DNA of 64,000 nucleotides, taken from assembly GCA_944389545.1 (NCBI GenBank), contig CALXMT010000011.1:3479-67478 (forward strand). The letters are read 5' to 3'. The stretch comes from an uncultured Kiritimatiellota bacterium (lineage in GTDB: Bacteria > Verrucomicrobiota > Kiritimatiellia > RFP12 > DVOR01). This document shows positions 9,708-55,907 of this stretch, piece after piece; position 1 is the stretch's first letter; each line of letters starts with the position of its first letter. A program made the translations under genes and the position numbers. The notes beneath the pieces were generated by a model. That model saw nothing but the letters and a program-made list of their open reading frames with translations. It searched no databases and had not been told where the DNA came from.

Positions 9708-9729
9708 GAGAGCCAGAAAGGGCACCGCG

Positions 9730-38470: not shown

Positions 38471-38536
38471 TTGCGCTTCCATGCCTCTTATTTTAGCAAA
38501 ATCCCCCCTACCCCGCAGAAACACAGGTCTAAACTC

Positions 38537-38665
38537 AATACTGTCCAGGGAAAAGGATAAACCGCAAAGACGCGACTCTTGCCAAAAAGACTTGAAAGAG
38601 GCCCAAGCGCGAAGACGATGATCGGGAGGATACGGTCAGCGGGCGTTTAGCCCGCAAAGCGAGGC
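38537..38665 (+). mobile_element. MITE-like repeat family B, truncated/deleted copy (B1)
   Basis: Left TIR TACTGTCCAGGGAAAAGG plus internal segments (…ACCGCAAAGACGC…GCCCAAGCGCGAAGACGATG…CAGCGGGCGTTTAGCCCGCAAAGCGA) that match family B. No right TIR. Confidence 0.5.
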
Positions 38666-38695
38666 CTCGGGTTCAAGTAACGCTTTCTTAGCCTT

Positions 38696-39463
38696 TTAAC
38701 GTGCAAGGGCCGCCGTGGCGATGTCGCAACACCGATCGATGACAGCTCCATGCGCAGGCAAGAGGGAGTGAAGATAACGGCGGCGGATGTCGACTTCACC
38801 GCGTTCAAGCGCCAAGCGACGCGAGGCGGCATAGTAAAGTCCACCGTTGCACCAAGCCAGCTGAATGAAGACAAAGTCAGCGAAACTCTGGATATCGGCG
38901 TAATCGACACTGTCGCCGCGTTCAAGGGAGGCAACGACCTTGGGCGAAGGCGGGCCGTCAAGCGGCAAGCCCCAGTAGACGTCCGGGTGCGAGGGCAGAT
39001 AATCCGTCTCAATGGCATGATCAAGGACGGTGTAGATGTCGAGCTTGTCGGCATCGCGGACAAGGTGCGCCAGGGCAAGCTCGTCCGGTGGGAGATGTGG
39101 GGGCAAGTCGCGCAAATTGTGACACTCGATGGCGCGAAGAATGGCGTTCCGCTCAGGTGCGGGGCGATCATCGAGCCACCCCAACCGCAAGGCCTCGCCG
39201 CAACTGAGGAGGGCATGATTCACGCTCACGCGGTCACTGAAGGTGCGATACTGGCCGTATTGACGAAAACGGCCGAGATCATGCAACCAAGCGGCTGTCT
39301 CGCCCAGTCCACGCAACCGGTCCGGGAAGGCCTCACCCGCCATGATGGCCTTTGCGTTCGCAACGACACGGCGGGTGTGTTCCAGCTTAAGGATGTTCAT
39401 CTCCTCGGCCGGGAAGGTGGCGGCATAAGCCTCAAAGGCGGACGCAATCTCAGAGTCTTTCAT
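38696..39463 (-). CDS. HD-domain phosphohydrolase
   Basis: …AAWLHDLGR…, …VRDADKLD… HD motif pattern; 255 aa. Confidence 0.65.
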   Translation of the reverse strand: MKDSEIASAFEAYAATFPAEEMNILKLEHTRRVVANAKAIMAGEAFPDRLRGLGETAAWLHDLGRFRQYGQYRTFSDRVSVNHALLSCGEALRLGWLDDRPAPERNAILRAIECHNLRDLPPHLPPDELALAHLVRDADKLDIYTVLDHAIETDYLPSHPDVYWGLPLDGPPSPKVVASLERGDSVDYADIQSFADFVFIQLAWCNGGLYYAASRRLALERGEVDIRRRYLHSLLPAHGAVIDRCCDIATAALAR

Positions 39464-39471
39464 GATTGACC

Positions 39472-42216
39472 TCAGTGTGCGGAAAGCCAGTCTGGGCCGA
39501 CTCCAATGGAAACGGAGAGCGGAACGGCCAAATCGATAACGTTTTCCATGGCGGTCTTGACCAAGGGGCGAACGACCTCCAACTCCTCCTCGGGGACATC
39601 GAAGAGCAATTCGTCATGAATCTGCAACGTCATCTGGGTGCGGAGCCCTTGGGCGCGCAACTCGCGGTCAATGCGGACCATCGCGAACTTGATGATGTCT
39701 GCGGCAGAACCTTGAATCGGCATGTTGATGGCGACACGTTCGGCGGCGGTGCGGGTGCTCACATTACGAGAGCCGATTTCCGGGACGGCGCGGCGGCGCC
39801 CAAACAGCGTCTGTGCATAACCGCGCTCACGGGCTTCGGCGATGCTCTTGTCCATATAGGCGCGGACGGCGGGGTATTGCGTGAAGTAGGCATCGATGAG
39901 TTCTTGAGCCTCTTTGCGCGGAATGCGCAGGCGCGAAGCCAGACCAAAGGCCGAGATGCCATAGATGATGCCGAAGTTGACCATTTTGCAATGAGAACGC
40001 TGCGCCGGCGTCACCTCGTCCAAGGGCACGCCATAGACGACAGAGGCCGTCTGCGCGTGAATGTCTTCGCCGCGCTTGAAAGCACCAATCATGCGTTCGT
40101 CGCCGCTCATGGCGGCCATCAAACGAAGCTCGACCTGTGAGTAGTCTGCCGAAAGCAACGTCCAGCCCGGGCCTCGCGCAACGAAGGCGGCTCGGATACG
40201 CTGGCCTCGATCGGAACGAACGGGGATATTTTGGAGGTTCGGGTTGGAGGAAGAGAGGCGCCCGGTGTCGGTAAAGGTCTGATTGAAGGTGGTGTGGATG
40301 CGCCCATCGGCGGGATCGATGTGATCAGGAAGGCGATCCACATAGGTATTCTTGAGTTTGACGCAGGCACGCCAATCGAGAATCAAATCGATGATGGGAT
40401 GACGGTCGCGCAGTTTAAGCAACAGCTCCTCATTGGTGGGGAATTGCCCACGCGACGTGCGTTTGACGGTCGGGTCCAACTTGAGGTATCCAAAGAGAAA
40501 CTCACCCAGCTGCTTGGGAGAGGCAAGGTTGACGCCGGCACCGGTGTAATTCCGAATGGCGAGCTCTTGGCGGATGACCTCCCCCTCCAACTCTTGACGG
40601 AATCGACGCAACGCGGAGACATCCAGGCGAACGCCAATGGTCTCCATGCGCAACAAAACACCGGCAAGCGGCTCCTCGCAATCGGCCAAGAGATGGTCAA
40701 GGCCCATCTCCTTGATTTTCGGCATCAGCACGGCATGGAGACGAAGGGCGACATCTGCATCTTCCGCTGCGTAATCCAGGATGGCTTCCGGCGGAACATC
40801 GGCCATGGTTCGCCCTTTGTCAGTGCCAAGCACCGCAGAGATGGGAATGGGTGCGTAGTCCAAAAAGACGTTGGCGACATGATCCAAGTCGTGGCGATCC
40901 GTCGCGTCCACGAGGTAATGCTCCAAGAGCGTATCGTGGAGCGGGCCGCGAAGCTCAATGCCCAGGCGCAACAAGACGGCTCGGTCAAAACGCAAATGAT
41001 GGCCGACCTTCGCGATAGTCTCGGACTGAAAGACGGGCAAGAAAGGCGCCAACGCCGCACGCTGCTCGTCATCCTGTTCCGGCAAGGGGACATACCACGC
41101 GCGCCCGCCTTCGATGGCGAAGGAACAGCCAACCGCACGATCGTGTCGCGGTTGCAGACCAATCGTCTCCGTGTCAAAGGCGACCACTGGTGCCTTCATG
41201 AGTTCGGCCGCGAGCGCTTCGCGCGCCTCCGGCGTCTCCGCCAGTCGATAGTCGTGCGGGACATCCGCCAGCGTCTTGTAGGTCGATGGCGTCGTCTCCT
41301 GGTTCTCCAGAAGCGTCGCCGTAAATCCGAATTGGGTCTGGGCGGCAGTGGCCGCGATGCCAATCCGGTTGGCCACTTGACGCAATTCATACTTGGCGAG
41401 AACGGGCGCGAGCCTCGCCACGTCCAAAGGCCCCAAGGTCAAATCATCGAGCGACGTTGCGACAGGGGCATCGCGGACGATTGTCACCAAGCGCTTGCTG
41501 AGGCGGGCATCTTCGGAATGGGTCTGAATCGTCTCGCCCGTCTTCCCCTTCACCTCCCCCGCGTGCGCCAAGAGATTGTCCAGCGTGCCATAGGTCGCCA
41601 AGAGCTTGACGGCCGTTTTGGCCCCAACGCCCGGAATCCCGGGGATATTGTCGCTGGCATCCCCGGCGAGAGCCAGATAGTCGATCATCTGCTCCGGCGT
41701 TGAGATTCCCCATTTGGCGCAAACCTCCTCGGCGGAAAGCGCCACCTGTTCCCCCGGATGGAGAATCGAGACGTGCGGACCGGCAAGTTGTCCCAAATCC
41801 TTATCCGGTGTCGCAATGATGACCTGGGCGAATCCGGCCGCCACAGCGCGCGCCGCAAGCGTCCCCAAAACATCGTCCGCCTCATAGCCCTCGGCCTGGA
41901 CCGTACGGATGCCCCACGCTTCCGCCAATTCCTTTGCTTGTCCAATGGCGGCGGCGATGTCTTCCGGCATTTTTTCGCGCTGGGCCTTGTAGGGCGCATA
42001 GAGCTTGTGGCGAAAGGTCGGCCCCTCACTCTCCAAGGCGATGGCCATATGCGAGGGGTTGAAGAGACGCAACATCTGCTCCAACGTGGTCGCAAAGAGC
42101 GAGAGCGAGGACGTCACAATCCCGGAGGCCGTACGTCTGGGATTCTTCAGAAAGACAAAATGCCCCCTATAAAGAATAGGCATCAAGTCGACCAAAAGAA
42201 GCGTTGTACCGTTCAT
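39472..42216 (-). CDS. polA: DNA polymerase I (5'-3' exo, 3'-5' exo-like and polymerase domains)
   Basis: N-terminal FEN-like region, and a C-terminal …RRAAKMVNFGIIYGISAFGLASRL… motif B. Start at MNGTTLLLVDL. Confidence 0.9.
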   Translation of the reverse strand: MNGTTLLLVDLMPILYRGHFVFLKNPRRTASGIVTSSLSLFATTLEQMLRLFNPSHMAIALESEGPTFRHKLYAPYKAQREKMPEDIAAAIGQAKELAEAWGIRTVQAEGYEADDVLGTLAARAVAAGFAQVIIATPDKDLGQLAGPHVSILHPGEQVALSAEEVCAKWGISTPEQMIDYLALAGDASDNIPGIPGVGAKTAVKLLATYGTLDNLLAHAGEVKGKTGETIQTHSEDARLSKRLVTIVRDAPVATSLDDLTLGPLDVARLAPVLAKYELRQVANRIGIAATAAQTQFGFTATLLENQETTPSTYKTLADVPHDYRLAETPEAREALAAELMKAPVVAFDTETIGLQPRHDRAVGCSFAIEGGRAWYVPLPEQDDEQRAALAPFLPVFQSETIAKVGHHLRFDRAVLLRLGIELRGPLHDTLLEHYLVDATDRHDLDHVANVFLDYAPIPISAVLGTDKGRTMADVPPEAILDYAAEDADVALRLHAVLMPKIKEMGLDHLLADCEEPLAGVLLRMETIGVRLDVSALRRFRQELEGEVIRQELAIRNYTGAGVNLASPKQLGEFLFGYLKLDPTVKRTSRGQFPTNEELLLKLRDRHPIIDLILDWRACVKLKNTYVDRLPDHIDPADGRIHTTFNQTFTDTGRLSSSNPNLQNIPVRSDRGQRIRAAFVARGPGWTLLSADYSQVELRLMAAMSGDERMIGAFKRGEDIHAQTASVVYGVPLDEVTPAQRSHCKMVNFGIIYGISAFGLASRLRIPRKEAQELIDAYFTQYPAVRAYMDKSIAEARERGYAQTLFGRRRAVPEIGSRNVSTRTAAERVAINMPIQGSAADIIKFAMVRIDRELRAQGLRTQMTLQIHDELLFDVPEEELEVVRPLVKTAMENVIDLAVPLSVSIGVGPDWLSAH

Positions 42217-43198: not shown

Positions 43199-46100
43199 TC
43201 CCCAAGCAGGCCGCGCAAGGCGTTCAGCCCACCGCGGACAGCCTCACGCTTGGCCTCTTTCTTGGCTTCTTTCTCCTGCTCCTCGGCGGTTTTCGGCTTG
43301 GCAGCCTCAGCGGCGGCCTTCGCCTCTCTTTCCTTCTGCTTCTCTTCCAAGATCGCGCCGCCATAGTTCAGCGCGGCGCCGAGCAAACCATCGTCCTTCG
43401 CTTTCGCGGCCTCGGCGTCATCCGCCTGGGGTTCTTTCTCGGCTTCCGCTTCGTTTTCATCCGAGCCGAAAAGTCCGCCGATAACGGATGTGGCGGCCTT
43501 GTCGATGAGCTCTGCCTCGGCGGCCTTCTTGGCGTCGCCGGTCGCCTCAGCCTTGGCACGCTTCTTGTCGAGATGTTGCTGCAAGCGAGAGACACCCACA
43601 GAGATGCCGGTCTTGGCGGCGGAGTCCACCAATGCCCCGACCTCGATGTTGGGGTCGTCGATGGTGCCGGTGATGGGCAAGGAGACCGGCTTGAGCACAG
43701 AGGTATCGGCGACCTTATCGCCCAACACCCCGTCAAGCGGGACAGAGAGCGTGTAGTCAATCGCCCGAGTGGAGAGATCGGTCCGCCCCTGACAGGCAAC
43801 CGTCCACTCGTCGTTGATGTCCACCTCAATCGGCTTGTCGGTGGAGAGCATGCCCTCCTTCACCTCGACCTCCAACTCCTGCGGCTTCATCGAAACCGCA
43901 TCGGTGCGCTTCCCGGTCGCCTCAAGCACACGGCCAAGGATACCGTTCGGCTGCAACGTGATTTCGCTTGTGGAGAGTGCGACATTGAGATCCAGCGACT
44001 GCAACGGATCCCCTTCGCCAAGCTCCAACCGCATCCGGCGGCTCTGGACGCTGATAGACCCTGTGGGCTCCGCGGAGCCCTTGAGAATCGGGCTGACCAG
44101 ACCCAGGCCGGCATCCATCAGCTCGGGCGTCACGTTGAAGTCCTTGAGCAAATAGTCGCCCTCCGGGATGTAAAGCACGTAACCGGAATCGGTGACCTCC
44201 AAGCGCGGGGAGAGACGCACTTCGCCACCGTTCATCGCCACCACCGCATCAACGGAGGCCTTGCCATCCTTCAACATCACCTGCGCCTCGCCCTTCGGGA
44301 TGTCAAGCCCAGGGACTGTCACGCGGTCAAACGCCACAGCGGCATTGGCCCGGCCATCGCGCAAGATTCCCTCCGCGCCGGACTTGATCGGCAGGACAAA
44401 CGAGAAGTCCCGCGCAATCCGCCCTTGCATGGCAATGCCCTGCTCGTTCGCTTTGTCCAAGAAGGGCAATTCCCAAATAGCGCCAAAGTCCGGGGTCAAG
44501 GTGCCATCCATCGCCACGATGCCGGACTCCGTGCCGAAGGAGCCCTTCATTGTCAACTCCACGTAGGGCGACTGCACCGCGAGTTGCCGCAGGAGGAAGT
44601 CCTTGCCCTGACCGTCAACGCGCAAATCCACATCAAAGGGAACCTTGAAAGGCCGCATCTCGCCCAGCGTCACCTTCAAGTCCTCCGAATCCACGGCCAC
44701 AACCACACTCGGCACCGTAGCCTCCAACGCAACCGGACGAGCCGTCAACGCCAAATTGATCTTGCCTTCCACGATGTTCATCTTCGCGGGGTCGGCAGGG
44801 ATCAGCCACTCACGCATGGCGTGCTCGGGCTCCACCCAGCCGGAGAAATCGGCAGTGACTGCCTCCCCCGTCGACTTGCCCAGCACATAGGTCAGCGAAC
44901 CCTCCACGTGCGAGGCCGCCGCCGTGTCAAACGACAGCTCCGTCACGTTCAGGCACTGCTCCGCGAAACGTACCTTGAAGGAGCCAGAGGCAAGCGAAGT
45001 CTCCTGCAGTCGGTAGTTCGGGCCGGTCACGTCAATATCCGTCACCTGGATATCCGTGGTTGCCTCAAACGCCCCTTCGCGCAGGCTGCCCCGCAGATTC
45101 ACCTTCGCCAGGCCATCCTTGATTTGGGGTTGCTCCAACTTCAGATATTCCGCCACCGTGAAGAAGTCGACAAGCGTCGAAAGCGTCAACTCGTTGATTT
45201 GCTTCGCCTCAACGTCGATGCCCTTCGCCGCCACTGTCGCCGTGACCAACTCATCACGATTGGAGGTGACCTTGACGGGGAAGCGCAGCGCGCCGTCTTT
45301 GGTCTCGCCGTCCAACGTCACCGTCACCGGCCCGGGCGTGGCAATCTCCCCGATGAAGGGCGCCAATGCGTTCAGCACCTCCTGGCTTTCCATGCGAGCG
45401 TGCAATGCGCCGTTCTCCAAATCACCCTGTCCTCGGATGTCCACGCCGGGGAACGTGATGCCCAGCTCGCCAATCTCCAACGCCAACAGATTGGCAGGAT
45501 CCACGACGATGTCATCCACGGTCGCGCTCACCTTAGGCAAGGTCGCCACGCGTCCCGCCTGCTCGGTCACGATGTCCGTTGTCGCAAGGCTGACCAAGGC
45601 GAGCAAGGCCTTGTTATTTCCGGGATTTCCCTTCAGCGTAGCAATGAGGTTCATTTCGCCCTTGTCAATCGTTGCGCCGGAAGGCAACGCCACTCCGAAA
45701 TCTCCCGCCACCTTCATAGCCTTCGCCAAGTCAATCGACAGTGCACTCTTCACCTCCGGCCAGACATCCGCCTCCGTCGCCGTGGCATCGACACCAACGG
45801 TCACCCACGGCGCCTCCGCTTCAAAGAACGCCGTCCGGAAGAAATCCGCGGGCTGCTTCGCCGCCAAAAGCGCATTCGCCGACACCGTCTCCACCTTCGT
45901 GTTAAGGGCCAAATCCAAGACCTTGCCGTCCACCACAGCCGTGATGGCATCGTTCAGCGAAGGCATCGTGACCTCCACGTTCACCCCGGAGACGAGCGGA
46001 TCCGGCAAGCCCTCCTTCTTGAACGAGGCATTCTTCACCACAATATGCGCCTGAACCGCCCAATCGGGCAACTTAAAGGGTTCAGCCGCGGGGGCCGGCG

Positions 46101-46740
46101 CCTGCGGTTGCGGGGCCGGTTGCACTTCAGCCACGGGTTGCGGCGGCTGCGGTTCCGGCGCCGGTTGCGCCGGTTGCGGCGGGGCAGGCGGAGGCGTGAA
46201 GAGCGCCACTGCAGGCGAATCCACCTCCACGTCCACCGTCATCTGCCCAAGCGGGATCAACTTCCACAGCGAAGAGAGACGGACCGACTTGACCTGGGCA
46301 TCGACACCCTTCGTCTCATCGCGATAATGGATGCCCTCCACGGATTGCTTCGTAAACCAACCAAAGCTCCAATCCGCGATTTCCACCTTGGCCGGCGCAA
46401 TGGCACCATTCACGATGTTCAGCGCCACATTCCGCGTCACGCCAAGCGACAGCAACGTCGGCAACAAGAGAATCAAAACCAAGAGAACGATGCACGTCCA
46501 CCCCAGCCACTTCAGCAAACGCTTCCACCAGGGTTTTTTCCCCTTGTCGGCGTCCTCCTTCGGAACGGCATCCGCCTTTTCTACGGCTTCTTCCTTTCCG
46601 GTTTCTGGCGCAGGCACTTCCGCCGGACTGGTGGACGCAGCCTCCTGCACATCCTGCTCGACATCTGCCGCCTTAGCCCCCTCCGGCTTTTCCACCGGTT
46701 GCTTGGGCTCTTCCTGCTTACCTACGTTCATCTCGTCCAT
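43195..46740 (-). CDS. AsmA/TamB-like giant envelope protein (N-terminal TM anchor, long beta-rich body, Lys/Glu/Ala-rich C-terminal tail)
   Basis: Lys/Glu-rich N-terminus, then a TM helix (WLGWTCIVLLVLILLLP), a ~1000-aa low-hydrophobicity beta-like region and an …AKAEATGDAKKAAEAE… tail. The family call is by architecture only. Confidence 0.5.
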   Translation of the reverse strand: MDEMNVGKQEEPKQPVEKPEGAKAADVEQDVQEAASTSPAEVPAPETGKEEAVEKADAVPKEDADKGKKPWWKRLLKWLGWTCIVLLVLILLLPTLLSLGVTRNVALNIVNGAIAPAKVEIADWSFGWFTKQSVEGIHYRDETKGVDAQVKSVRLSSLWKLIPLGQMTVDVEVDSPAVALFTPPPAPPQPAQPAPEPQPPQPVAEVQPAPQPQAPAPAAEPFKLPDWAVQAHIVVKNASFKKEGLPDPLVSGVNVEVTMPSLNDAITAVVDGKVLDLALNTKVETVSANALLAAKQPADFFRTAFFEAEAPWVTVGVDATATEADVWPEVKSALSIDLAKAMKVAGDFGVALPSGATIDKGEMNLIATLKGNPGNNKALLALVSLATTDIVTEQAGRVATLPKVSATVDDIVVDPANLLALEIGELGITFPGVDIRGQGDLENGALHARMESQEVLNALAPFIGEIATPGPVTVTLDGETKDGALRFPVKVTSNRDELVTATVAAKGIDVEAKQINELTLSTLVDFFTVAEYLKLEQPQIKDGLAKVNLRGSLREGAFEATTDIQVTDIDVTGPNYRLQETSLASGSFKVRFAEQCLNVTELSFDTAAASHVEGSLTYVLGKSTGEAVTADFSGWVEPEHAMREWLIPADPAKMNIVEGKINLALTARPVALEATVPSVVVAVDSEDLKVTLGEMRPFKVPFDVDLRVDGQGKDFLLRQLAVQSPYVELTMKGSFGTESGIVAMDGTLTPDFGAIWELPFLDKANEQGIAMQGRIARDFSFVLPIKSGAEGILRDGRANAAVAFDRVTVPGLDIPKGEAQVMLKDGKASVDAVVAMNGGEVRLSPRLEVTDSGYVLYIPEGDYLLKDFNVTPELMDAGLGLVSPILKGSAEPTGSISVQSRRMRLELGEGDPLQSLDLNVALSTSEITLQPNGILGRVLEATGKRTDAVSMKPQELEVEVKEGMLSTDKPIEVDINDEWTVACQGRTDLSTRAIDYTLSVPLDGVLGDKVADTSVLKPVSLPITGTIDDPNIEVGALVDSAAKTGISVGVSRLQQHLDKKRAKAEATGDAKKAAEAELIDKAATSVIGGLFGSDENEAEAEKEPQADDAEAAKAKDDGLLGAALNYGGAILEEKQKEREAKAAAEAAKPKTAEEQEKEAKKEAKREAVRGGLNALRGLLGE

Positions 46741-46810
46741 AGCGTGACTCCTTTATCTTTATTATAGCACTTTCCCCCACCCCAGGCACCACCCATCAGC
46801 AAAGTCACAG

Positions 46811-47139
46811 TAGTGTCCGGGGAAAATTGGAACCGCAAAGACGCAAGGGTGGGCGCGAACCGCTTCGGGCTCCATCGGTCGCTCTGCGGCTTCGCCGCTG
46901 ACCGCGACCGCCGCCCTCCGTTTCGCGCCTTGTGGTCTTTTCTAAAGAAGAAGGGTCGGGATGTGGGGCGGAGCCCCACCAAGAACTCCAATCAGCTAAG
47001 CTTCCAACTCCCTTTGAGCGCCCCTTCAGGGGCGCGATAGCGTGGAAATCCCAAGGGCGGCGCGACCAACGGGAGCGATGGAGCCCGCAGGGTTTCCACG
47101 CAAGACCGTCTTCGCGGTAAAACTTCCCCGGACACTATT
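46811..47139 (+). mobile_element. MITE-like repeat family A copy 3
   Basis: Full-length copy with both TIRs (TAGTGTCCGGGGAAAA…TTCCCCGGACACTATTG). Confidence 0.75.
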
Positions 47140-47152
47140 GAGTAGCGTCCAA

Positions 47153-47421
47153 TACTGTCCGGGGAAAATGGAGACCGCAAAGACGCAAATCTTGCAGGAA
47201 AGGTGGGGCGCTAACGCCGGGCGCACGGTCGTGCGCCCTCCCGCCCCCCACTTTCCTGCGCCCAAATGACTTATTAAGACAGCTCAAGCGCGAAGACGAT
47301 GGGCGGAAGGGAGCGATCAGCGGGCGTTTAACCCGTAAAGCGACCGGCGTTAGCCCATCTGGCTTCGCGCTTACTTGCGTCTTTGCGGGAAAAGAAGGCT
47401 TCCGAATTCTCCGGACACTAT
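47153..47421 (+). mobile_element. MITE-like repeat family B copy 2 (full length, ~270 bp)
   Basis: TIRs are TACTGTCCGGGGAAAATGGAGACCGCAAAGACGCAA… and …TTCCGAATTCTCCGGACACTATT. The first ~35 bp is shared with family A; the internal sequence is different and also palindromic. Confidence 0.75.
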
Positions 47422-47464
47422 TACCTCTGTCTATCTCTGTTCCCGCCTTTCCCAGGACACTACG

Positions 47465-47605
47465 ATCCGAGACCCTATAGGGGTCCGCGGTCAACCACTA
47501 TAGGGGTCGGGGTCGAGACCCTATAAGGGTCCGAGGCGAGACCCTATAAGGGTCGGAGGCGAGACCCTATAGTGGTCGGAGGCGAAACCCTTAAGGGCCC
47601 AGAAA
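47465..47605. repeat. array P2: ~6 tandem 23-bp CCCTATAGGGG-palindrome repeats (homologous to P1)
   Basis: The first ~70 bp are near-identical to P1 (GAGACCCTATAGGGGTCCG(C/T)GGTCAACCACTATAGGGGTCGGGGTCGAG…). Confidence 0.75.
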
Positions 47606-47690
47606 CGACCTAGTACGAGACAAAGGAGAAGTATGCGACTCTTCCTCAAAAAGGGTGTGATTGTCTAAAAATAATCGCTTACCCTAAAAC

Positions 47691-47717
47691 AAAAAAGCCC
47701 GCCGGGGCGGGCTTTTT
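47691..47717. terminator. bidirectional Rho-independent terminator (AAAAAAGCCCGCC-gggg-GGCGGGCTTTTT) downstream of pfk
   Basis: Perfect GC stem flanked by an A-tract and a T-tract, ~20 bp past the pfk stop. Confidence 0.8.
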
Positions 47718-47735
47718 GAGGAGGTCGCCTTGACC

Positions 47736-49106
47736 TCAGGGGACGTAGAGGGTGGAGGCGGACTTGTTGTCGGAGGGGTTGAGGTAGTACTCCTGGCCGG
47801 TGGCGACAAGGACGGAGGACCAGAGGTTGGAGGTGAGCTCCACCTTGCGGCGCTCGATGGTGGCCAACGGAATCGGCACGAGGGAGTAATCGTCGTTCAG
47901 GCGACCGACGACGCAGTTGGTACGACCGGCCATGGCGGCGTGGGCGGCCATGCGGGCGAGGCGGTAGCAAAGAACCGCGTCGGAGGCGTCGGCGGGGCAG
48001 GAACGGATGGTGTAGGAGGGGTCGATGTACTTGACCGTGACGTCTTCCTTGCGAGCCTTGAAGTGCTCAAGGATACGGTTTTTGAGGTATTCGCCGATGT
48101 CCTTCTTGAGGATGTTGCCGGAGGCGTCGCGCCGCTCCTCGCCTTCCATGAGTTCCTGGCCGGCACCTTCGGCGACGACGATGACGGCGTGGCTCTTGCC
48201 GGAAGCGAAGCGGCGCTCGAGGGCCGCGAGGAGGCCATGCTCGCCGTCAACGGTGAAGGGCTGCTCGGGAATGAGGCAGAAGTTCACGACGGGGTTGGCG
48301 AGGGTGGCATAGGCGGCGATGAAGCCGGAGTCACGCCCCATGAGCTTGACGAGGCCAATGCCGTAGTGGGCGCCGAGGGCCTCGGAGTGGGCGGAGCGGA
48401 TGGCGGGGACGGCGGCGGCCACGGCGGTCTCGAAACCGAAGGTGCGGCCAACGAAGTGGAGGTCGTTGTCGATGGTCTTCGGGATGCCGACGACGGAAAT
48501 CTTCAGGCCGCGGCGACGGCACTCGTTGGAGACGTCGCGGGCGCAACGGAGCGAGCCGTCACCACCGATGGCGAAGAGTACGTTGATGCCCATGCGCTCG
48601 AGAGTGTCGACCATGCGGGCGGTGTCCTGCTGGCCGCGGGAGGAACCGAGCATCGTGCCGCCCCACTCGTGAATGGTGTCGACCTTATCCGGCGTGAGAA
48701 TCATGGGCTCGTAGCCGAACTCGGGGATGAGGCCGGCGTAGCCATAACGGAAGCCGTAGATGGTCTTGATGCCGTAGCTGAAGGTCAGAACCTCGACGAG
48801 GCCCTTGATGACGTTGTTCAAGCCCGGGCAGAGGCCACCGGCGGTGACGATGGCGGCGCGGGTGGCGCTGGGATCATGGAAAATCTTGCGATGGGGACCG
48901 GCGCTCTCAAGCTTGGGAGCAGACCCATACTTCTTGACGAACTCCTGAACGTAGCTGGAACGCACGCTCAGCAGGGAGTACATATCGTCCTCTTCCACGA
49001 AGTTCGTGTTCTTGACCGGAGAATCAACCTTGCACTCACCAAGATTCTCGGTGATGAAAGTAAACTTGGAGGGGTCGTTGAAAATACGCTCGAATAACGA
49101 AGCCAT
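47736..49106 (-). CDS. pfk: 6-phosphofructokinase (long PFK-A form, possibly PPi-dependent)
   Basis: …AAIVTAGGLCPGLNNVIKG…, …GYAG…, …MLGSSRG…, …AIGGDGS… Start at MASLFERIF; C-ending codon style. Confidence 0.8.
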   Translation of the reverse strand: MASLFERIFNDPSKFTFITENLGECKVDSPVKNTNFVEEDDMYSLLSVRSSYVQEFVKKYGSAPKLESAGPHRKIFHDPSATRAAIVTAGGLCPGLNNVIKGLVEVLTFSYGIKTIYGFRYGYAGLIPEFGYEPMILTPDKVDTIHEWGGTMLGSSRGQQDTARMVDTLERMGINVLFAIGGDGSLRCARDVSNECRRRGLKISVVGIPKTIDNDLHFVGRTFGFETAVAAAVPAIRSAHSEALGAHYGIGLVKLMGRDSGFIAAYATLANPVVNFCLIPEQPFTVDGEHGLLAALERRFASGKSHAVIVVAEGAGQELMEGEERRDASGNILKKDIGEYLKNRILEHFKARKEDVTVKYIDPSYTIRSCPADASDAVLCYRLARMAAHAAMAGRTNCVVGRLNDDYSLVPIPLATIERRKVELTSNLWSSVLVATGQEYYLNPSDNKSASTLYVP

Positions 49107-49191
49107 AAAATGTCCTCTCGTGTGCTCGACCCAAGGTGGGTCAAGTTGGCGTAATATTATACGGTTTTGCCTCGCGTCCGTCAAATCCAAT

Positions 49192-49459
49192 GGTGTCCGG
49201 GGAAATCGAAAAGCCTCCTTTTCCCGCAAAAACGCCAGTGCGCGCGAAGCCAGATGGGCTAACGCCGGTCGCTTTGCGGGCTAAACGCCCGCTGATCGCT
49301 CCCTCCCGCCCATCGCCTTCGCGCTTGGGCCGTATTTCAAATCCCTTTGGCGCAGGAAAGTGGGGCGCGGGAGGGCGCACGACCGTGCGCCCGGCGTTAG
49401 CGCCCCACCTTTCCTGCAAGAATTGCGTCCTTGCGGTTCCCGTTTTCCCCGGACACTAC
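49192..49459 (-). mobile_element. MITE-like repeat family B copy 3 (reverse orientation), flanked by a 10-bp direct repeat CGTCAAATCC
   Basis: Reverse complement of B2. The identical decamer CGTCAAATCC is present immediately outside both ends (~49179-49188 and ~49462-49471), consistent with a target-site duplication. Confidence 0.75.
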
Positions 49460-49473
49460 TGCGTCAAATCCTG

Positions 49474-52170
49474 TCAGCGACGCAAGAGGGCGCGAAGGAG
49501 GAAGCGAATGGGAAGCGGCGTAATAACCAACGTGGCGACAAGCAGGACGACCAAGCCCTCCGCCAGGCGTGCCCAGGGCAAGACCAACACGGTCGGGAGT
49601 CCGCCGAAGGGCATCCAGGCAAGCGTCCAGCCCGTGAAGCCCCAGCCAATCGAAAGGCCGAGCAACAGGGAAAGCACGGCGGCCACGACGCAAAGGAGCA
49701 AGGCTTGCGCCAAGAGGAAGCGTCCCAACTGCCCACGCGTCATGCCGATGGCGTGAAGGGTGCGCAACTCACCGGCCATGGCGCGAACATTCGCGGCCAG
49801 CAGGGAGACAAAGCCGAAGCTGAGAATGAGGAGCGACCACAGCGGAATACGCGCCAATTCACCGAGCAATTCTGAGCTGTGCGCCAAGGTCCCCTCGGAA
49901 ATCTCGTCGCGCAGATGGAGGACCGCATTGGGGAAGGCGGCCTTCGCCCCAGGCCCAAAGCCACGCCCGCGCCACGGTTCGGGGTCGGCCTCGGCGGCCT
50001 GTTGAAGGCGCAGTTCCAGACGGTCGCCGGCGGAATAGAGCGCCGCCGTGTCTTGGGCCGTCGGAAGCTCATCGAGCCAAAGGAAACGGACACGTGCGGC
50101 CTGCTCCGGGTCCCAAGCCTTGGCAACGTCAAGCCCCACAAAGACAGGGCCGAGGGTGCCAAAGGGCGCGCCATTGCGGGCACGGAGGCCGGCCCGGGCG
50201 GTGACGAGGTGCCAGTTGCAACGGACGATGGCGGTGACGGTGAGCGGCAGGGTGTGGACGGTTCCTGCCGCGTCGCGCCGTTGGATGGAGAAGGTGTCGC
50301 CGATGCCAATGCGGCATTGACGGGCGAACATCTCGGTGACGGTGACGCCTGTCTCCCCGGCGGTGCCGACAAGAAGGATGTTGTTCTGCTTTGGGAGTCG
50401 CCCGGCACGCTCGCCAATGGCCGTGAAGTCAGCATCGGAGAGACGGTATTGCTCGGCGAAAAAGGGTCGGACGGGGAGGTTCTTGACCAGAGCGTCCGCG
50501 CAGGTTTGGCTAACGCCATTGGGCAGGAATGAGACGATGGCCGGCGGCAAATCGCGTGAGGGAATGAAGGGGTCGGTGAGCGAGGCTCCCCAGATATGGA
50601 TGGCGAAGAAGGCACCGAGGCCGGCCGTCAACGTGAGAGCCATGCGGGCGTTGCGGTCGGCGGAACGGGTGAGGACACCGCGCAAGAGTTCCGGCCGCAA
50701 CCGCAACACGGCACCGAGCGGACGCGCCAGCGCCCATTCGCAGAGGGCCATCAAGGGGCGCGTGAACGCCATCAGGCCAAAGACGGCCAACGGCAACGCA
50801 ACCAAGAACCACGCGCTCCGCAACCACGGATTGGGCGTGAAAGGAAGGACCGTAAGCACAATCGGCACCAGGCAAAGCAGGGCCAAGACCCCACGCCAAA
50901 TGGGATGGGCCACACGCCAAGCCTCGGGGCGCACACGCAAATCGCAGGGACCGAGCCGCGCCGCCCGGCGCAGGGGCACGCACAATGCGATTCCGGCGGA
51001 AAGCATCAACAGAACCGCCACGACAAGCGGCGTGGCCCAACCAATCACAAGCCCATCCGGGAAGGCCAAGGGATTCGTCCGCACGAAAACGGCAAGCGCC
51101 CCCACCCCAACGCCAAACCCGATCACGCCCCCCACGCCCGCGAGGAACAGGGCCTCGCGGGAGACAAGCGCCATGAGCTGACGCGACGTCATGCCAAGGG
51201 CGCGCAGGCGGGCATAGCGGACACGGTTTTGTTCCAGGCCCACGCAGAGCGCATTCACAATCATGCAAAGCGTGGCCACGCAAGCGAGGGCCACCAGAAG
51301 CGGAAGCTGAAAGAGAAGGTTGTTTGTCGCATCAGAGCGAAGTTGGCGCAACAGGCCTTGCCGCGTAACCAACGTGGCCGCATCGTCGTCCGGCGAGACG
51401 GTTCGGACAGTCTCGGCCAGGGCATCAGGCGACCGGAAGGGTTTCAAGCGGATGAGCATGAGATTGCACAGCCCCTTGGTCTCGGCCAAAGCGGCGGCCT
51501 CGGCAAGCGTATCGCTGGCAAACATCGTTGGGAACCCGCCCACAGGGCGAATGGATTCAGCAAGATAACCACAAATCGTTGCCTCAACGCGCCCCTTCGG
51601 CGTGATGACCGGGACCTTTGTGCCAATGGGCGGGGCATCGCGCAACCCCTCTTCACCGAAGGCACGCGGGGAGATGACAAACTCCGGCTCAGACGCATCG
51701 GCCTGGGGCCATCGCCCGGCGGCCAGACCATCCGGATAGGGGCACTCAGGGAAATCCCGGACCGGCGCGATGCCGCCCCCCACCCCGGGGCCTTGAAGCG
51801 GACGCCCCTCGGGACGCCAATCGAGGCGACAGCGAAAAACGGTAGTGGCGAGGACGCTCTCAACGTCCGGCGAGGCCTTGACCGCATCCGCCACGGCACG
51901 TGGGATCATCTTGACGGGCGAACCGTGCGTGAGCGACTGCATGCCGCTACCTTTCGGCGCGGCGGCAGAAGCACGCCCCGTGGCGACCCAACAGTCGAAC
52001 GGCTTGCCCATCGTCTCGGCAAGCGACTTGCATTGCGCCGTTGTGGTCACGGCCAAGCCGATGGACCAAGCCAACAGTGCGGCTGCCGCGGCCACGCCCA
52101 ACAGCGCGCAAACCAAGCGCACGCGGTCACGCCGCAGTACGTCGCGGAAGAGAAGCCCCAGCGCACTCAC
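49474..52170 (-). CDS. ABC transporter permease, FtsX/MacB-LolCE-like, duplicated (two 4-TM FtsX modules with large periplasmic loops)
   Basis: 898 aa with two clusters of TM helices separated by soluble loops; overlaps the upstream ATPase gene by 4 nt. Confidence 0.6.
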   Translation of the reverse strand: MSALGLLFRDVLRRDRVRLVCALLGVAAAAALLAWSIGLAVTTTAQCKSLAETMGKPFDCWVATGRASAAAPKGSGMQSLTHGSPVKMIPRAVADAVKASPDVESVLATTVFRCRLDWRPEGRPLQGPGVGGGIAPVRDFPECPYPDGLAAGRWPQADASEPEFVISPRAFGEEGLRDAPPIGTKVPVITPKGRVEATICGYLAESIRPVGGFPTMFASDTLAEAAALAETKGLCNLMLIRLKPFRSPDALAETVRTVSPDDDAATLVTRQGLLRQLRSDATNNLLFQLPLLVALACVATLCMIVNALCVGLEQNRVRYARLRALGMTSRQLMALVSREALFLAGVGGVIGFGVGVGALAVFVRTNPLAFPDGLVIGWATPLVVAVLLMLSAGIALCVPLRRAARLGPCDLRVRPEAWRVAHPIWRGVLALLCLVPIVLTVLPFTPNPWLRSAWFLVALPLAVFGLMAFTRPLMALCEWALARPLGAVLRLRPELLRGVLTRSADRNARMALTLTAGLGAFFAIHIWGASLTDPFIPSRDLPPAIVSFLPNGVSQTCADALVKNLPVRPFFAEQYRLSDADFTAIGERAGRLPKQNNILLVGTAGETGVTVTEMFARQCRIGIGDTFSIQRRDAAGTVHTLPLTVTAIVRCNWHLVTARAGLRARNGAPFGTLGPVFVGLDVAKAWDPEQAARVRFLWLDELPTAQDTAALYSAGDRLELRLQQAAEADPEPWRGRGFGPGAKAAFPNAVLHLRDEISEGTLAHSSELLGELARIPLWSLLILSFGFVSLLAANVRAMAGELRTLHAIGMTRGQLGRFLLAQALLLCVVAAVLSLLLGLSIGWGFTGWTLAWMPFGGLPTVLVLPWARLAEGLVVLLVATLVITPLPIRFLLRALLRR

Positions 52171-52892
52171 GCCATGCGCTCCAAATAGTTGGCGGAGACG
52201 GTGGCAGGGTCATGGCCCGTCTCGAAGGCGCCACAAATCTGTCCGTCGCGCAGGATATGAACGACATCGGCGGCGGCGGCGACCTGCGGGTCGTGGGAGA
52301 TGAGGAGAATGGCCGCGCCAAGCTCACGGTTGAGCCGCGTGAGGGTGGCGCAAAACTCGGCGGCGGCAGGTGAATCCAGGTTGCCGGTGGGCTCATCGGC
52401 CAGAATGATATCCGGGGCCATCGCGAAGGCGCGAGCGATGGCGGTGCGCTGGGCCTCGCCGCCGGAGAGGCGATCGGCAGGTTGATTGCGGCGATGCGTC
52501 AACCCCACCAATCGTAGGAGCGTCTCCATCCGCTCGGCGGGAACATCGCGGCCATCGAGGAGCGCAGGCAGTGCGATATTTTGCGCAACGGTGAGGGTCG
52601 GGATGAGGTTACAATCCTGGAAGACAATGCCGACCGAACGGCGGCGGAGCAAGGTCAGTTCATGGTCGGGAAGGCCAACCAGTGAACGCCCCTTCACAGA
52701 AACCTCGCCGGAGTCCGGCGGAAGCAACCCCGCCAGAAGATTCAGAAGCGTGCTTTTGCCCGCGCCGGAGGGTCCCATGACGGCATGGAAAGCCCCTTCC
52801 GGGACGGCAAGCGTGACGCCGCGCAGGACATCGATGACGCGCCCTTCCACACGGAAGGATTTGCGCAGGTCTGTGGCTTGAAGGGCGTTCAT
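52167..52892 (-). CDS. ABC transporter ATP-binding protein (LolD/MacB-type)
   Basis: GPSGAGKSTLLN Walker A, LSGGEAQRTAIARA signature, ILADEPTGNLD Walker B. Start at MNALQATDL. Confidence 0.85.
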   Translation of the reverse strand: MNALQATDLRKSFRVEGRVIDVLRGVTLAVPEGAFHAVMGPSGAGKSTLLNLLAGLLPPDSGEVSVKGRSLVGLPDHELTLLRRRSVGIVFQDCNLIPTLTVAQNIALPALLDGRDVPAERMETLLRLVGLTHRRNQPADRLSGGEAQRTAIARAFAMAPDIILADEPTGNLDSPAAAEFCATLTRLNRELGAAILLISHDPQVAAAADVVHILRDGQICGAFETGHDPATVSANYLERMA

Positions 52893-52893
52893 T

Positions 52894-55014
52894 TTAGAAG
52901 CGGAAGCGAAGGGAAAGCTCAAAGGTGCGCCCATCGTTGGCGAAGGCCTGCAGGTTGCGGGCGGACTCCACACCACGCGAATCGAAGATATTGCGCACGG
53001 CAAGCCCCAGGGAGAAGTTCTCGGTGAAGGGGAAATCGACGGAAGCATCGAAGGTGAGGAGGCGCTTGGCGATTTGGTCCTCGCCCGCGGGCTGGCCGCG
53101 GAAGGTCATCATCCACGCGTCGCGCCAACGGCAACCGAAGCCGAAGACGGCGTCGTAGAACCACGGGGCCTTGTAGCTCGTCCAGAGCGAGACGGCGTGC
53201 GGCGGGAAACGGTCAAAGCGGAGGCCGTTGGTCTTGTCGTAGTAATCGATGTAGGCGTAGGCCAGGTAGATGGACCAATTGTCGGTGATGTCGCCGGAGG
53301 CGGAGAGCTCCACGCCCTGCGAATAGGTCTTGCCGTCGTCTGAGTAGTAACCCTCACCGGTGAGATCGTTGTCCATGGCGATGGGCGCATTGGACTGGTC
53401 GATGCGGAAGACCGTGCCCGTGAGCCAGAGGCTGCCGGTGGGATTCACGCGGATGCCGGCCTCTTTCTGCACGGCGCGCCACGTGCTGTCAAGGTAATCC
53501 GAGGGCGAGGTGCCGATGTTGTCGGGCCAACGCTTGTAATTGAAGTTGGGGGTCTCGGTGAGGGAGACGTTGGCGAAGAGGATGGCGCGTCCGGCCTCGA
53601 GAATGTCGTAAGAAATGCCAAGGCGCGGGGAGAAGGTCCACTCGTGCACGTGGTTCACGCTGTCGTGCCAGTCGGCACGCACGCCGGCGATGACACTGAG
53701 CCCGTGCCACTCCAACAGGTCCTGCACGTTGATGCCGACCTTCTGCTGACGCGTGTCGGAATAGCCCGAGGCCTTGATTGTCTCGAGGTAGTTCTCTTCT
53801 GTAATAGTGCCACTGCGGCCCGTGGAGGTGAAGCCGCCCCAGCCTTGACTCTCCTTCACGGTGGTGCTCACGCCCACAAGGAACTGGTGGTCGATGCCCC
53901 AAGTGTCGAACTTGAAGATGGCGTCCTGGCCGGCGTAAAAAGTGCGAGCCAGGCGGTCGCCCGCGCCCCACTCATACCGCTTGTTGCTGGCCGGATCGGG
54001 GTCGAAGCCGGTATTCGAATAGGGCCCGCGGTAGTCATAGCGGCTCTCGGTCTGAAAGAAGGAGAGGCGCGTACGCAGGGTCAACCAATCCGTCACGTCG
54101 CCATCCAACCGGAAAGTGCCGCCGAAGGTCTGAAAGCGCATCCGGTCACCGGGGCGCGTGTAGGTGTCGTCCCAACCGCTGCCATACGGTTTCCCATAGA
54201 GCGTGCGCACGCCCTGGAAGGCCGGCTGGTCGCTGTATTGATAGAAGAGGTCAAGCCCCGCCTCCAAACGGTCGGCCACGCGCAACGAGAGACTCGGCGC
54301 CGCAGAGAAGGTCGTCCCGTGCCCGGCGTCCGAGGGCGCCCAACCTGGCTCACGCCATTCGTAAGCCATTGGCACACGCACCGCAAGCCGCTCATCCTCG
54401 AACACTTGATTCACGTCCGTAGCAAACTTTAGGCGCGTTCCGGACGCCTTGGAATAAGACCCCTTTAGCAAGAAGTCGTAGAAATCTTCCTCGAAGGAGG
54501 CCCGCTTAGGCTGCAGGATGACCGTACCGCCTGCGCCCATGAGATCGGTCATGCTCCCCATCTGTGCACCGTACGCACCGCCGACCGGCCCCTTCACGAT
54601 GTCCACCCGCTCCAAAAGCGTCGGGTCAAGGAAGGTCGCCACGCCACCGGCCAACGGCACCCCGCCCAACAAGACCTCACTTCCCGAATAACCACGAATT
54701 GTATAGGTGCCGGCCTGTCGTGCCATCACGGTCTTGCCACCCTGGTAAATACCCGGCTGAAGCGTCAGCAACTGATCGAGATCGGTCGTGTTTCGTTCGC
54801 GGATAAAGTCCTCGGTCAGCGAATCGACCGTAAAGGGCGACCGCTCCGGCGGTAGTTCCACCAACGTTCCGGCGTCTGTCGTCTCCGTTCGATACTTCGG
54901 CAATGGCGCGGCCGTCACTTGAACCGCCTCGTTCGTCGTCACCGCTTCTTCGCCCAACGTCATGCCCGGAAGAAGCGCGAGCAAGCACAACAAAACCTTT
55001 TCTGAAACTTTCAT
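52894..55014 (-). CDS. TonB-dependent outer-membrane receptor
   Basis: Signal peptide, an N-terminal plug region, a long beta-barrel body and a C-terminal …LSLRFRF aromatic terminus. Start at MKVSEKVLL. Confidence 0.7.
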   Translation of the reverse strand: MKVSEKVLLCLLALLPGMTLGEEAVTTNEAVQVTAAPLPKYRTETTDAGTLVELPPERSPFTVDSLTEDFIRERNTTDLDQLLTLQPGIYQGGKTVMARQAGTYTIRGYSGSEVLLGGVPLAGGVATFLDPTLLERVDIVKGPVGGAYGAQMGSMTDLMGAGGTVILQPKRASFEEDFYDFLLKGSYSKASGTRLKFATDVNQVFEDERLAVRVPMAYEWREPGWAPSDAGHGTTFSAAPSLSLRVADRLEAGLDLFYQYSDQPAFQGVRTLYGKPYGSGWDDTYTRPGDRMRFQTFGGTFRLDGDVTDWLTLRTRLSFFQTESRYDYRGPYSNTGFDPDPASNKRYEWGAGDRLARTFYAGQDAIFKFDTWGIDHQFLVGVSTTVKESQGWGGFTSTGRSGTITEENYLETIKASGYSDTRQQKVGINVQDLLEWHGLSVIAGVRADWHDSVNHVHEWTFSPRLGISYDILEAGRAILFANVSLTETPNFNYKRWPDNIGTSPSDYLDSTWRAVQKEAGIRVNPTGSLWLTGTVFRIDQSNAPIAMDNDLTGEGYYSDDGKTYSQGVELSASGDITDNWSIYLAYAYIDYYDKTNGLRFDRFPPHAVSLWTSYKAPWFYDAVFGFGCRWRDAWMMTFRGQPAGEDQIAKRLLTFDASVDFPFTENFSLGLAVRNIFDSRGVESARNLQAFANDGRTFELSLRFRF

Positions 55015-55360
55015 GCTGCTAATAGTAGCACATCCATTTCCGTAAAAGTAAGTAAAATCTTTCCCCTTTTCAATCCAGCAACGCAAAGTATACAAGCCCC
55101 TCCAGCACCACCAAGCGATGCCTTCCAACACCCTTCACATCCTACCGCGTCACGGGGCCGCTTCACCGTTTCAGCGACGTAGGCTCCTGCTCTCCTGTCT
55201 GCCTGTGCACTGAATACCGCTCAAATTGGACCGGCGCCAACTGTTCTTCTGGCTCCGAGCCTAAAACCTTGCCATCCTTCGCCGCACCTGGCGCTTGGTG
55301 GAGGCGGGTCGCTTGACTGCCGCTTCCTGCTTCTTTGGCGGCGTCCATGGGCAACGCCAA

Positions 55361-55628
55361 TACTGTCCGGGGAAATCGGCAAGCCTCTTTTCCCGCAAAG
55401 ACGCGAGTGCTCGCGAAGCCTGATGGGCTAACACCGGTCACTTTGCGGGCTAAACGCCCGCTGATCGCTCCCTCCCGCCCATCGTCTTCGCGCTTGGGCC
55501 GTCTTTCAAGTACCTCCGGCGCAGGAAGTGGGGCGCGGGAGGGCGCACGCACGTGCGCCCGGCGTTAGCGCCCCATCTTTCCTGCAAGATTTGCGTCTTT
55601 GCGGTTCCTTTATTTTCCCGGCCACTAT
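55361..55628 (-). mobile_element. MITE-like repeat family B copy 4 (reverse orientation)
   Basis: Aligns with B3 end to end. Flanks share AACGC(C/A)A on both sides, a possible degenerate TSD. Confidence 0.7.
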
Positions 55629-55907
55629 TGGAGTAACGCAACGTTTCCTCAAACCGCGCTTGCGGCACAGGAAACGCCAACGATCGCCAAAACGCCTCAT
55701 TCTCCTACACCCGCAATCTCGTCTGTAACGTGCTAGGTACGATGGATGATGCTTCCCGAAAAACACTAGAAACGCAAGGGATGGGCACGGTAGTGAGGCC
55801 CGGAGGGCCGAACGGTGAAGTGCCCAGGCCCTTGCGTTCCTTCGTGTCTTCGTGGAAACTTCCCCGGCACCGCATGGATGCCACGGATTTGGTACACTAA
55901 TGCCGTT

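Follow-up and report, generated by a model that had tools for sequence, protein, structure and literature searches.

The 64,000-nt stretch of DNA analysed here (hereafter the window) carries two families of short dispersed repeats, A and B, lying between protein-coding genes. By BLAST and repeat finding, family B is represented by three full copies and one remnant, and family A, approximately 335 bp long, by four copies. With a solitary tip, this makes seven full or near-full copies, one remnant and one solo tip in the window. The features are as follows.

3392-3729, + strand: A1, family A copy, 338 bp
9253-9585, + strand: A2, family A copy, right tip missing
38536-38665, + strand: family B remnant, between an HD-domain gene and der (engA)
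46808-47140, + strand: A3, family A copy, 333 bp, same 18-bp tips, right tip 9 bp from B1
47150-47423, + strand: B1, family B copy, 274 bp, no recognisable target-site duplication
47448-47465, - strand: degenerate tip standing alone (TCGTAGTGTCCTGGGAAA), from a truncated third element, immediately right of B1
49156-49184, - strand: promoter-like site of the PFK gene, TTGACG-17-TATAAT, 11/12 matches, kept in relatives
49179-49187: B2 duplication, promoter-side copy, CGTCAAATC on the + strand, which includes the PFK promoter's -35 hexamer, TTGACG (- strand)
49188-49461, - strand: B2, family B copy, 274 bp, between the stop of an FtsX-permease gene (49474) and the PFK promoter
49462-49470: B2 duplication, far copy, CGTCAAATC, matching the promoter-side one at 9/9
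55349-55357: B3 decayed duplication, left, GGGCAACGC, 7/9 match, P = 1.3e-3
55358-55630, - strand: B3, family B copy, 273 bp, between the divergent genes for a TonB receptor (Plug) and a protein kinase
55631-55639: B3 decayed duplication, right, GAGTAACGC
61116-61482, + strand: A4, family A copy, 367 bp

An earlier note on this DNA had described family B as a multi-copy element with a palindromic interior, sharing its terminal sequence with family A. All of this was borne out, but the copy boundaries given there had to be shifted, the true ends lying 2-4 bp further out. The repeats are far above chance, the window containing 5 occurrences of the common terminus pattern against 0.00 expected. 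Pairwise identity among the full family B copies is 87-90%. Positions 46-111 of B are self-complementary and form a 66-bp interior palindrome, and folding of the family is strong (z = -7.4 and -7.6, one per strand). In the remnant, only B positions 2-47, which include the left tip, and 112-195 are present, the palindrome and the right end being gone. The first 40-44 bp or so are common to both families (93% identity), and family B has the structure of a mosaic: a short left end as in A, then the palindrome, then a right end that corresponds to the left subterminal module of A, inverted and diverged (72% identity). The element tip, CA(A/G)TA(G/C)TGTCCGGGGAAA, is 18 bp long and was found with 0-3 mismatches at both ends of B1, B2, B3, A1, A3 and A4. 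A second conserved box, CCGC(A/G)AAGACG (the CCGCAAAGACG box), is located 25-37 bp from the tip in all four end types.

Related copies were found elsewhere, at no fewer than 15 loci in the MAG CALXOF01 and at one in Ca. Spyradenecus faecavium; homologous copies and loci from two other Kiritimatiellia MAGs are numbered L001 to L016. Element sizes range from 194 to 465 bp. No ORF across the elements gave a Pfam match at E<=0.1, and neither interiors nor ORFs showed similarity to IS4 transposases or to any transposase gene.

The earlier note had also reported a 10-bp target-site duplication, on the basis of an exact repeat bracketing B3. Such a decamer pair exists (CGTCAAATCC, at 49179-49188 and 49462-49471), but it flanks B2, and B3 has only the 7/9 match listed above. 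Its length had to be revised as well: the left decamer ends on the conserved C that opens the element, and the tenth position mismatches in L007 and L013, two copies with intact duplications. The duplication is therefore 9 bp. Tabulated over the 15 two-ended copies of the window and L001-L016, flanks match at 9/9 in three (B2, L007 with CTTCAATAC, and L013 with TCGCTGAAG), at 8/9 in two (L001 and L016) and at 7/9 in one, while a 9/9 match in a fixed register has a chance probability of 3.8e-6. Flanking repeats at other copies, on which the note had made transposition depend, are thus present, with 6/15 copies matching at 7/9 or better; the other 9/15 have no recognisable duplication.

Two larger mobile units were considered and rejected. 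A composite transposon made of B2, the FtsX, ABC and Plug genes, and B3 does not fit, since B2 and B3 have separate duplications and mismatched outer flanks. Likewise, A3, the 9-bp spacer and B1 do not form a single unit, since the outer flanks of this arrangement mismatch in the window and in L007, and the B copy of L007 has a perfect duplication of its own.

Insertion of B2 left the PFK promoter-like site intact. Filled and empty sites, a comparison that the earlier note had proposed, could be set against each other on one side. In a relative whose PFK block is 94.5% identical at the nucleotide level (PFK 99% identical), a single GATTTGACG is present, without element, and homology to the window ends exactly at 49187, the element boundary. 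The upstream flank of this relative is non-syntenic, so that the empty site is one-sided; no clean one was found. PFK homologues at 85-89% identity lie in other gene neighbourhoods, without elements.

The proposed search for an insertion sequence (IS) with this terminus led to full-length IS4-family elements with the exact tip, in other organisms. The exact 18-mer is present on at least 120 metagenome contigs. Many of the tip-bearing elements are 1313-1654 bp long, are bounded by the tip on either side and contain a single ORF of approximately 400 aa, and at 25 or more metagenome loci an IS4 transposase lies directly inside the tip. The transposases of the full-length elements score 168-258 bits with NCBIfam NF033592 (transpos_IS4_1; cut-off 115), and Pfam detects DUF4372 and DDE_Tnp_1 on these elements. 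The Y-(2)-R-(3)-E-(6)-K motif was seen in full-length relatives (for example YRVRWQVELFFRWIK), whereas the window elements have no transposase. Duplications of the full-length elements are 8-10 bp, all three lengths being seen, and match at 9/9 in L051, L089 and L099. GC content of the IS4 elements with the exact tip varies from 31% to 68%.

Among named relatives, the tips of ISGme2 from Geobacter metallireducens read ..TACTGTCCGGT.., and the first 13 tip bases of the window elements follow the common CAnTAnTGTCCGG pattern of such elements, with the whole 18-mer unchanged in at least 25 full-length elements from metagenomes. The IS4Sa subgroup is defined by ends CA------T, a length of 1150-1750 bp, presence of YREK, and direct repeats of 8-10 bp (PMC2266710, Table 1); ISGme2 is not named in the supplements of that paper. 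With C1, A2 and T9, the tip CAGTAGTGT fits the 5'-CA------T end of IS4Sa, and the 9-bp duplication of the window family falls in the 8-10 bp range. The window elements differ from IS4Sa-type and ISGme2-like ISs by their size, 274-367 bp, and by the lack of a transposase, and their interiors are unrelated to any of the full-length IS4 elements found.

Families A and B have inverted tips and 9-bp duplications, lack coding capacity, are dispersed between genes in several copies across three genomes, and share their tip with full-length IS4 elements, and the name of MITE given to them in the earlier note is well deserved. We estimate at about 90% the probability that both are non-autonomous MITEs with the tips of a widespread IS4-family group, characterized by IS4Sa-type ends and ISGme2-like transposases.

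How these elements would move can be proposed from their ends. A DDE transposase of the IS4 family, acting in trans, would bind both tips and excise the element, by cut-and-paste of the Tn5/Tn10 type via a hairpin on the transposon end, as for the IS4 family. Insertion at a 9-bp staggered cut, followed by repair, would then yield the 9-bp duplication. Because A and B have the same terminal sequence, a single transposase class is the natural mobiliser of both, as the earlier note had supposed. The origin of the transposase, the chemistry of the reaction and the use of one enzyme for A and B are what we infer.

We looked for an autonomous partner at several levels. The 64-kb window, 126 kb of sequence from the two related MAGs and the ENA contig flanks yielded neither a transposase nor a remnant of one. 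In an all-against-all comparison of the ORFs of the window and L001-L016, the only multi-copy proteins were Sel1-repeat proteins and aminoacyl-tRNA synthetases. A tblastn search with 72 ORFs from inside the tips of metagenome loci, 25 of them confirmed IS4 transposases, gave no match. The left-end pattern had 16 matches in 185,579 species-representative genomes, all of them short elements and none a full-length IS, and no match in JGI metagenomes and viral contigs. The recent activity suggested in the earlier note is not supported: copies are 10-13% diverged, no transposase was found in the window or in related loci, and presence/absence polymorphism was not seen, the ENA contigs assembled from three different samples showing 100% identity to the window over every copy.

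The missing autonomous copy would be expected if the elements were immobile wreckage, that is, full-length IS copies that underwent independent internal deletions and were never mobile as short units. Many copies also lack duplications or one end (A2 and the remnant at 38536, for instance). However, the same internal architecture recurs at unrelated loci in three genomes, the interiors resemble no transposase gene, and it is the short units themselves that are directly bordered by duplications, all of which makes this origin very improbable.

We also hold it very doubtful that the elements are structured ncRNA genes or RNA regulators that have inverted ends by coincidence. Folding is indeed strong (z about -7 to -8), copies adjoin promoters and gene ends, and a subterminal module of approximately 80 nt varies less between copies and between genomes than the adjoining spacers. 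Yet the two strands fold equally well (-132 versus -136 and -172 versus -173 kcal/mol), as DNA palindromes would, and compensatory changes were seen in 0/13 predicted pairs of the conserved module. No match in the window reached the Rfam 15 gathering score, the sole match over A3 and B1 being chance-level (E = 0.26) and located on a neighbouring tandem repeat. Orientation relative to neighbouring genes is not fixed, B1 lying against local transcription and B2 along with it. Finally, the duplications imply that copies arrived by transposition.

Scarcely credible is the alternative that the earlier note had itself raised, a host REP system served by its REP-associated tyrosine transposase (RAYT) rather than a classical IS: REPs and BIMEs are likewise abundant, intergenic, palindromic and clustered (here A3, B1 and the solo tip, 46808-47465), but REP units are 20-40 bp long, rely on a Y1 (HUH) transposase and are not known to make target duplications, whereas the present units measure 270-340 bp, 9-bp duplications flank six copies, the tips are those of IS4-family DDE elements, and scanning or annotation of approximately 45 major ORFs of the window gave no Y1_Tnp match.

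Comparable elements occur elsewhere. Derivatives of 417 bp (L057), 416 bp (L134), 316 bp (L136), 372 bp (L138) and 244 bp (L074) from freshwater-sediment metagenomes are bounded on both sides by this 18-bp tip and have perfect or near-perfect 9-bp duplications, 9/9 in L057, L134 and L136. Unlike the window elements, they belong to other organisms, and their interiors are unrelated; these MITE-like derivatives are of independent origin from the same IS group. In the Bacillus cereus group, the IS231-derived MITEs or mobile insertion cassettes (MIC231) are non-autonomous elements with IS4-family terminal repeats that depend for movement on the cognate transposase of that family, acting in trans, and MICs can carry passenger genes. 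The window elements resemble MIC231 in being non-autonomous with IS4-family ends, and differ by the lack of passenger genes. The IS231 subgroup has ends CAT and duplications of 10-12 bp (PMC2266710, Table 1). IS231 and MIC231 belong to another IS4 subgroup, and to another phylum, than the window elements.

The subterminal module deserves separate mention. Between copies, and between the three genomes, its approximately 80 nt are more than 90% conserved, unlike the variable spacers that flank it, and it is found in both families, in opposite orientations. Moreover, a B copy lies exactly 9 bp from the same A end at unrelated loci in two genomes. It is conceivable, if rather unlikely, that selection maintains the module and its CCGC(A/G)AAGACG box, either as a second site for the transposase or a host factor, which would steer insertions beside an existing end, or as an exapted, promoter-proximal host function.

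Kiritimatiellia are a little-studied group of gut and sediment bacteria, known mostly from MAGs. Our literature search found no paper pairing Kiritimatiellia with MITEs, and as far as we could tell, families A and B are the first MITE families described in them, here tied to a specific IS group. They are an ordinary kind of selfish DNA, a known element type that is new to this bacterial group, and they leave the understanding of transposition itself unchanged. Their practical consequences are more immediate. Assemblies break at these sites because of the elements, contig L018 ending inside A3 and L139 inside B2; the elements should be masked in small-ORF calling, and they may serve as strain markers. 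Since the exact 18-bp tip occurs on IS4 elements over so wide a range of GC content, it is a handy key for searching metagenomes for this IS group and its MITEs.

Two MITE families, A and B, are carried by this Kiritimatiellia genome. Both are real and well delimited, with IS4 ends (IS4Sa-type, ISGme2-like) and 9-bp duplications. They were confirmed by direct reading of the four regions named in the earlier note, whole-window repeat finding, alignments, and a sensitive BLAST search of the window with each copy. The earlier note, which had read the repeats as MITEs, was right in substance, as shown by the IS4-type tips, the duplications and the dispersed non-coding copies. However, judged by the conserved tip, CA(A/G)TA(G/C)TGTCCGGGGAAA, its element boundaries lay 2-4 bp too far in.

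Copies of families A and B in the window, refined boundaries
3392-3729, + strand: family A, copy A1
9253-9585, + strand: family A, copy A2, right tip lost
46808-47140, + strand: family A, copy A3
61116-61482, + strand: family A, copy A4
47150-47423, + strand: family B, copy B1
49188-49461, - strand: family B, copy B2
55358-55630, - strand: family B, copy B3
38536-38665: family B remnant, B positions 2-47 and 112-195 retained

Family A copies are 333-367 bp long, and pairwise BLAST identity within family B is 88% (B1/B2), 87% (B1/B3) and 90% (B2/B3). All copies are intergenic, and ORFs across the elements revealed no coding capacity. The first 40-44 bp are common to A and B, with about 93% identity (family D4 in repeat finding), and a pattern for this shared end gave 5 matches in the window versus 0.00 expected.

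Oriented tip inward, the elements have four types of end, each made of the 18-bp tip, a variable spacer, a box CCGC(A/G)AAGACG 25-37 bp from the tip, and then a differing module. Conservation is higher in the subterminal modules than in the adjoining spacers. In family A, the left end (“alpha”) and the right end (“beta”) are mutual inverted repeats over some 70 bp (73% identity). In family B, the “gamma” left end consists of the shared 44 bp and a 66-bp palindrome, whereas the “delta” right end is an inverted homologue of the A alpha module (72% identity, B1 140-240 versus A1 126-31), so that B is a mosaic around two left-type ends. Other module combinations occur in a related MAG: elements of 194 bp and 232 bp pair alpha with a plain end, and in other cases alpha runs into unrelated sequence. 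Just beyond the right tip of A1 (window 3730-3743), the last 14 bp of that tip are repeated in tandem (CCTGGACACTACTG), and the related locus L014 has a B tip that runs into a truncated right tip of A type (GAAAACTTCCCTGG|CAGTAGTG); each resembles the trace of an insertion into an element end.

A and B both fold as long hairpins, with energies on the two strands of -132.4 and -136.2 kcal/mol for B1 and -172.0 and -173.4 kcal/mol for A3 (z = -7.2 to -8.0 for both copies, both strands). Such folding could denote a structured RNA family, but this is not supported: the strands fold equally, as expected of DNA palindromes, no Rfam match was found, and in the conserved module, none of 13 predicted base pairs shows compensatory change.

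Flanks were tabulated, from the refined boundaries, for 15 two-ended copies in the window and related loci.

Two-ended copies with a flanking duplication
Window B2: CGTCAAATC / CGTCAAATC, 9/9
L007, B copy: flanking 9-mer CTTCAATAC, 9/9
L013: flanking 9-mer TCGCTGAAG, 9/9
L001: 8/9
L016: 8/9
Window B3: GGGCAACGC / GAGTAACGC, 7/9

In a fixed register, chance would give 9/9 with a probability of 3.8e-6 and at least 7/9 with 1.3e-3. A duplication was borne out (at least 7/9) at 6 of the 15 copies and was not recognisable at the other nine, including window B1, A1, A3 and A4. Its length is 9 bp and not the 10 bp first proposed, because the tenth position is mismatched in L007 and L013, and the apparent tenth base at B2 is the conserved first C of the element itself. 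The exact flanking repeat previously assigned to B3 sits at B2. A reading of the elements as immobile wreckage left by deletions is contradicted: one and the same architecture recurs at loci that are unrelated, and the short units themselves are bounded directly by duplications.

The left-end pattern had no match in JGI metagenomes or viral contigs. The bare 18-bp tip was found in at least 120 metagenome contigs, with a GC content of 31% to 68% among the matches listed. Many of these listed matches lie near contig ends, and many are complete elements of 1313-1336, 1372, 1408-1410 or 1654 bp; these have the tip or a near variant at either end and just one ORF, of about 400 aa, whose start lies 60-120 bp inward of the left tip. 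Among the listed matches, the ORF is homologous to verified transposases at 25 loci. Thus full-length IS4-family elements having the same tip, sought as the earlier note had proposed, do exist in contigs of other organisms. All five representatives scored as IS4-family transposases, four of them with NCBIfam NF033592 (transpos_IS4_1, 168-258 bits, cut-off 115 bits) and Pfam DUF4372 plus DDE_Tnp_1. The fifth, from L090, matched NF033591 (IS4_2, 276 bits) and is without the DUF4372 domain; its element (L090 150-1803) is an AT-rich (32% GC) IS of 1654 bp with perfect copies of the same tip. As it falls in a different NCBIfam model, the identical tip spans deeply diverged IS4 transposases. The Y-(2)-R-(3)-E-(6)-K motif can be made out in these sequences.

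Duplications of the tip-bearing metagenome elements are 8, 9 or 10 bp. Perfect 9-mers flank full-length elements (L051, L089, L099) and short MITE-like derivatives in other organisms (L057, 417 bp; L134, 416 bp; L136, 316 bp). In one subgroup of full-length IS (L029, L030, L034, L066, L082, L103, L112, L117, L126, L128 and others), the element is always preceded by YTTTG-N6-C and the duplications, of 8 bp, are bounded by CTTT...AAAG, pointing to a target for that subgroup that is specific and palindromic.

Among plasmids, the nearest named element is ISGme2 of Geobacter metallireducens (56.6% protein identity; PGAP name “IS4-like element ISGme2 family transposase”), with ends TACTACTGTCCGGTAAA and CACTACTGTCCGGTTAA. 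The IS4Sa subgroup is characterized by CA------T ends, a length of 1150-1750 bp, the YREK motif and direct repeats of 8-10 bp (De Palmenaer et al. 2008, PMC2266710 Table 1). All four features fit, size and YREK being seen in the full-length tip-bearing relatives. IS10 and IS50 likewise produce repeats of 9 bp, but their ends begin with CT or CW. REP elements served by a RAYT, the alternative raised in the earlier note, are excluded on four counts: the duplications, tips of DDE type, the unit size, and the lack of a Y1 transposase among the roughly 45 major window ORFs scanned or annotated.

Metagenome contigs from three samples in ENA (ERZ28614349, ERZ28613991, ERZ24773299) are 100% identical to the window, and the best named matches of its PFK protein are in Kiritimatiellia MAGs. 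With one genome scanned per species, the shared left end was found at 16 loci, 15 in the Kiritimatiellaeota MAG CALXOF01 (BRZ_KQ bin80) and one in Candidatus Spyradenecus faecavium. These loci are non-syntenic, and their A and B copies reach 92% identity with those of the window. The genes neighbouring the elements are of the ordinary housekeeping kind (polA, der, pfk, ligA, nadE, folD, pgi, murG-like and others).

Some neighbours recur. A class II aminoacyl-tRNA synthetase gene (tRNA-synt_2) adjoins the element at 3 of the 16 related loci (L003 1173-2147, EpmA/AsnRS-like; L007 5871-7340, LysRS-like; L014 3213-5030, AspRS), more than chance given 3-4 such genes per genome. Sel1-repeat protein genes are met repeatedly at element-bearing loci (window 9682-10635; L002 3-839; L006 5644-7905; L014 5546-6436), and two of these genes directly adjoin an element (A2 in the window, the B copy in L014). 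Tandem arrays of about five 23-bp units, each with the palindrome GACCCTATAGGGGTC, lie at window 31267-31372 and 47468-47597 (repeat family D3), one directly adjoining a solo tip beside B1; these arrays have no Rfam match. Such units are also present at L003 ~2170-2200, L008 ~1990-2025 and L004 1843-1860, and in the related MAG similar repeats, of GTCCTATAGG type, adjoin elements. Tandem repeats of 45 bp (window 3158-3264 and 46081-46168) are inside large ORFs adjoining A1 and A3, encoding proteins of 876 aa and 1181 aa without Pfam match.

B2 sits in the gap between an FtsX-type permease gene, with its stop at 49474, and the promoter of PFK.

49184 to 49156, - strand: PFK promoter, TTGACG-17-TATAAT, 11 of 12

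The -35 hexamer is inside the duplicated 9-mer, so the B2 insertion regenerated the promoter beside PFK. This promoter is kept at the PFK loci of six relatives. In one relative (L151/L152), a single GATTTGACG is found without the element, and homology with the window ends exactly at 49187, the base adjoining B2; the empty site is one-sided, because the upstream flank is not syntenic. The PFK gene, promoter and terminator form a 1500-bp block (window 47688-49187), 94.5% identical in DNA in L151/L152, with entirely different neighbourhoods on both sides there and likewise in relatives at 85-89% protein identity. B2 and B3 (49188-55630) bracket three genes (FtsX permease, ABC ATPase, TonB-receptor) in direct orientation. 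A composite transposon was rejected, as each copy has a separate duplication and the outer flanks differ.

At unrelated loci of two genomes, a B gamma-end and an A beta-end face each other across exactly 9 bp.

Window 46808-47423: A3-AGTAGCGTC-B1 junction
L007 4831-5422: B-CTTCAATAC-A junction

Since the L007 junction 9-mer is B's own perfect duplication, B inserted there into the 9 bp abutting the A tip. Insertion may be targeted to the flank of existing ends, a lead from two cases. Nothing points to current activity, and the recent activity once proposed is unsupported: divergence between copies is 10-13%, some of them have been truncated, and no presence/absence difference was seen among three independent assemblies.

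No cognate transposase was found for this lineage in the window or the related loci. IS copies are typically lost from MAG and short-read assemblies, so that this is weak evidence. The inverted tips, the duplications, the lack of coding capacity and the dispersal in three genomes were seen directly. By analogy with Tn5 and Tn10 of the IS4 family, a DDE transposase acting in trans would synapse both tips and excise the element via a hairpin on the transposon end, and insertion would take place at a 9-bp staggered cut. Because the tips are identical and the subterminal box is shared, one enzyme would serve both A and B.
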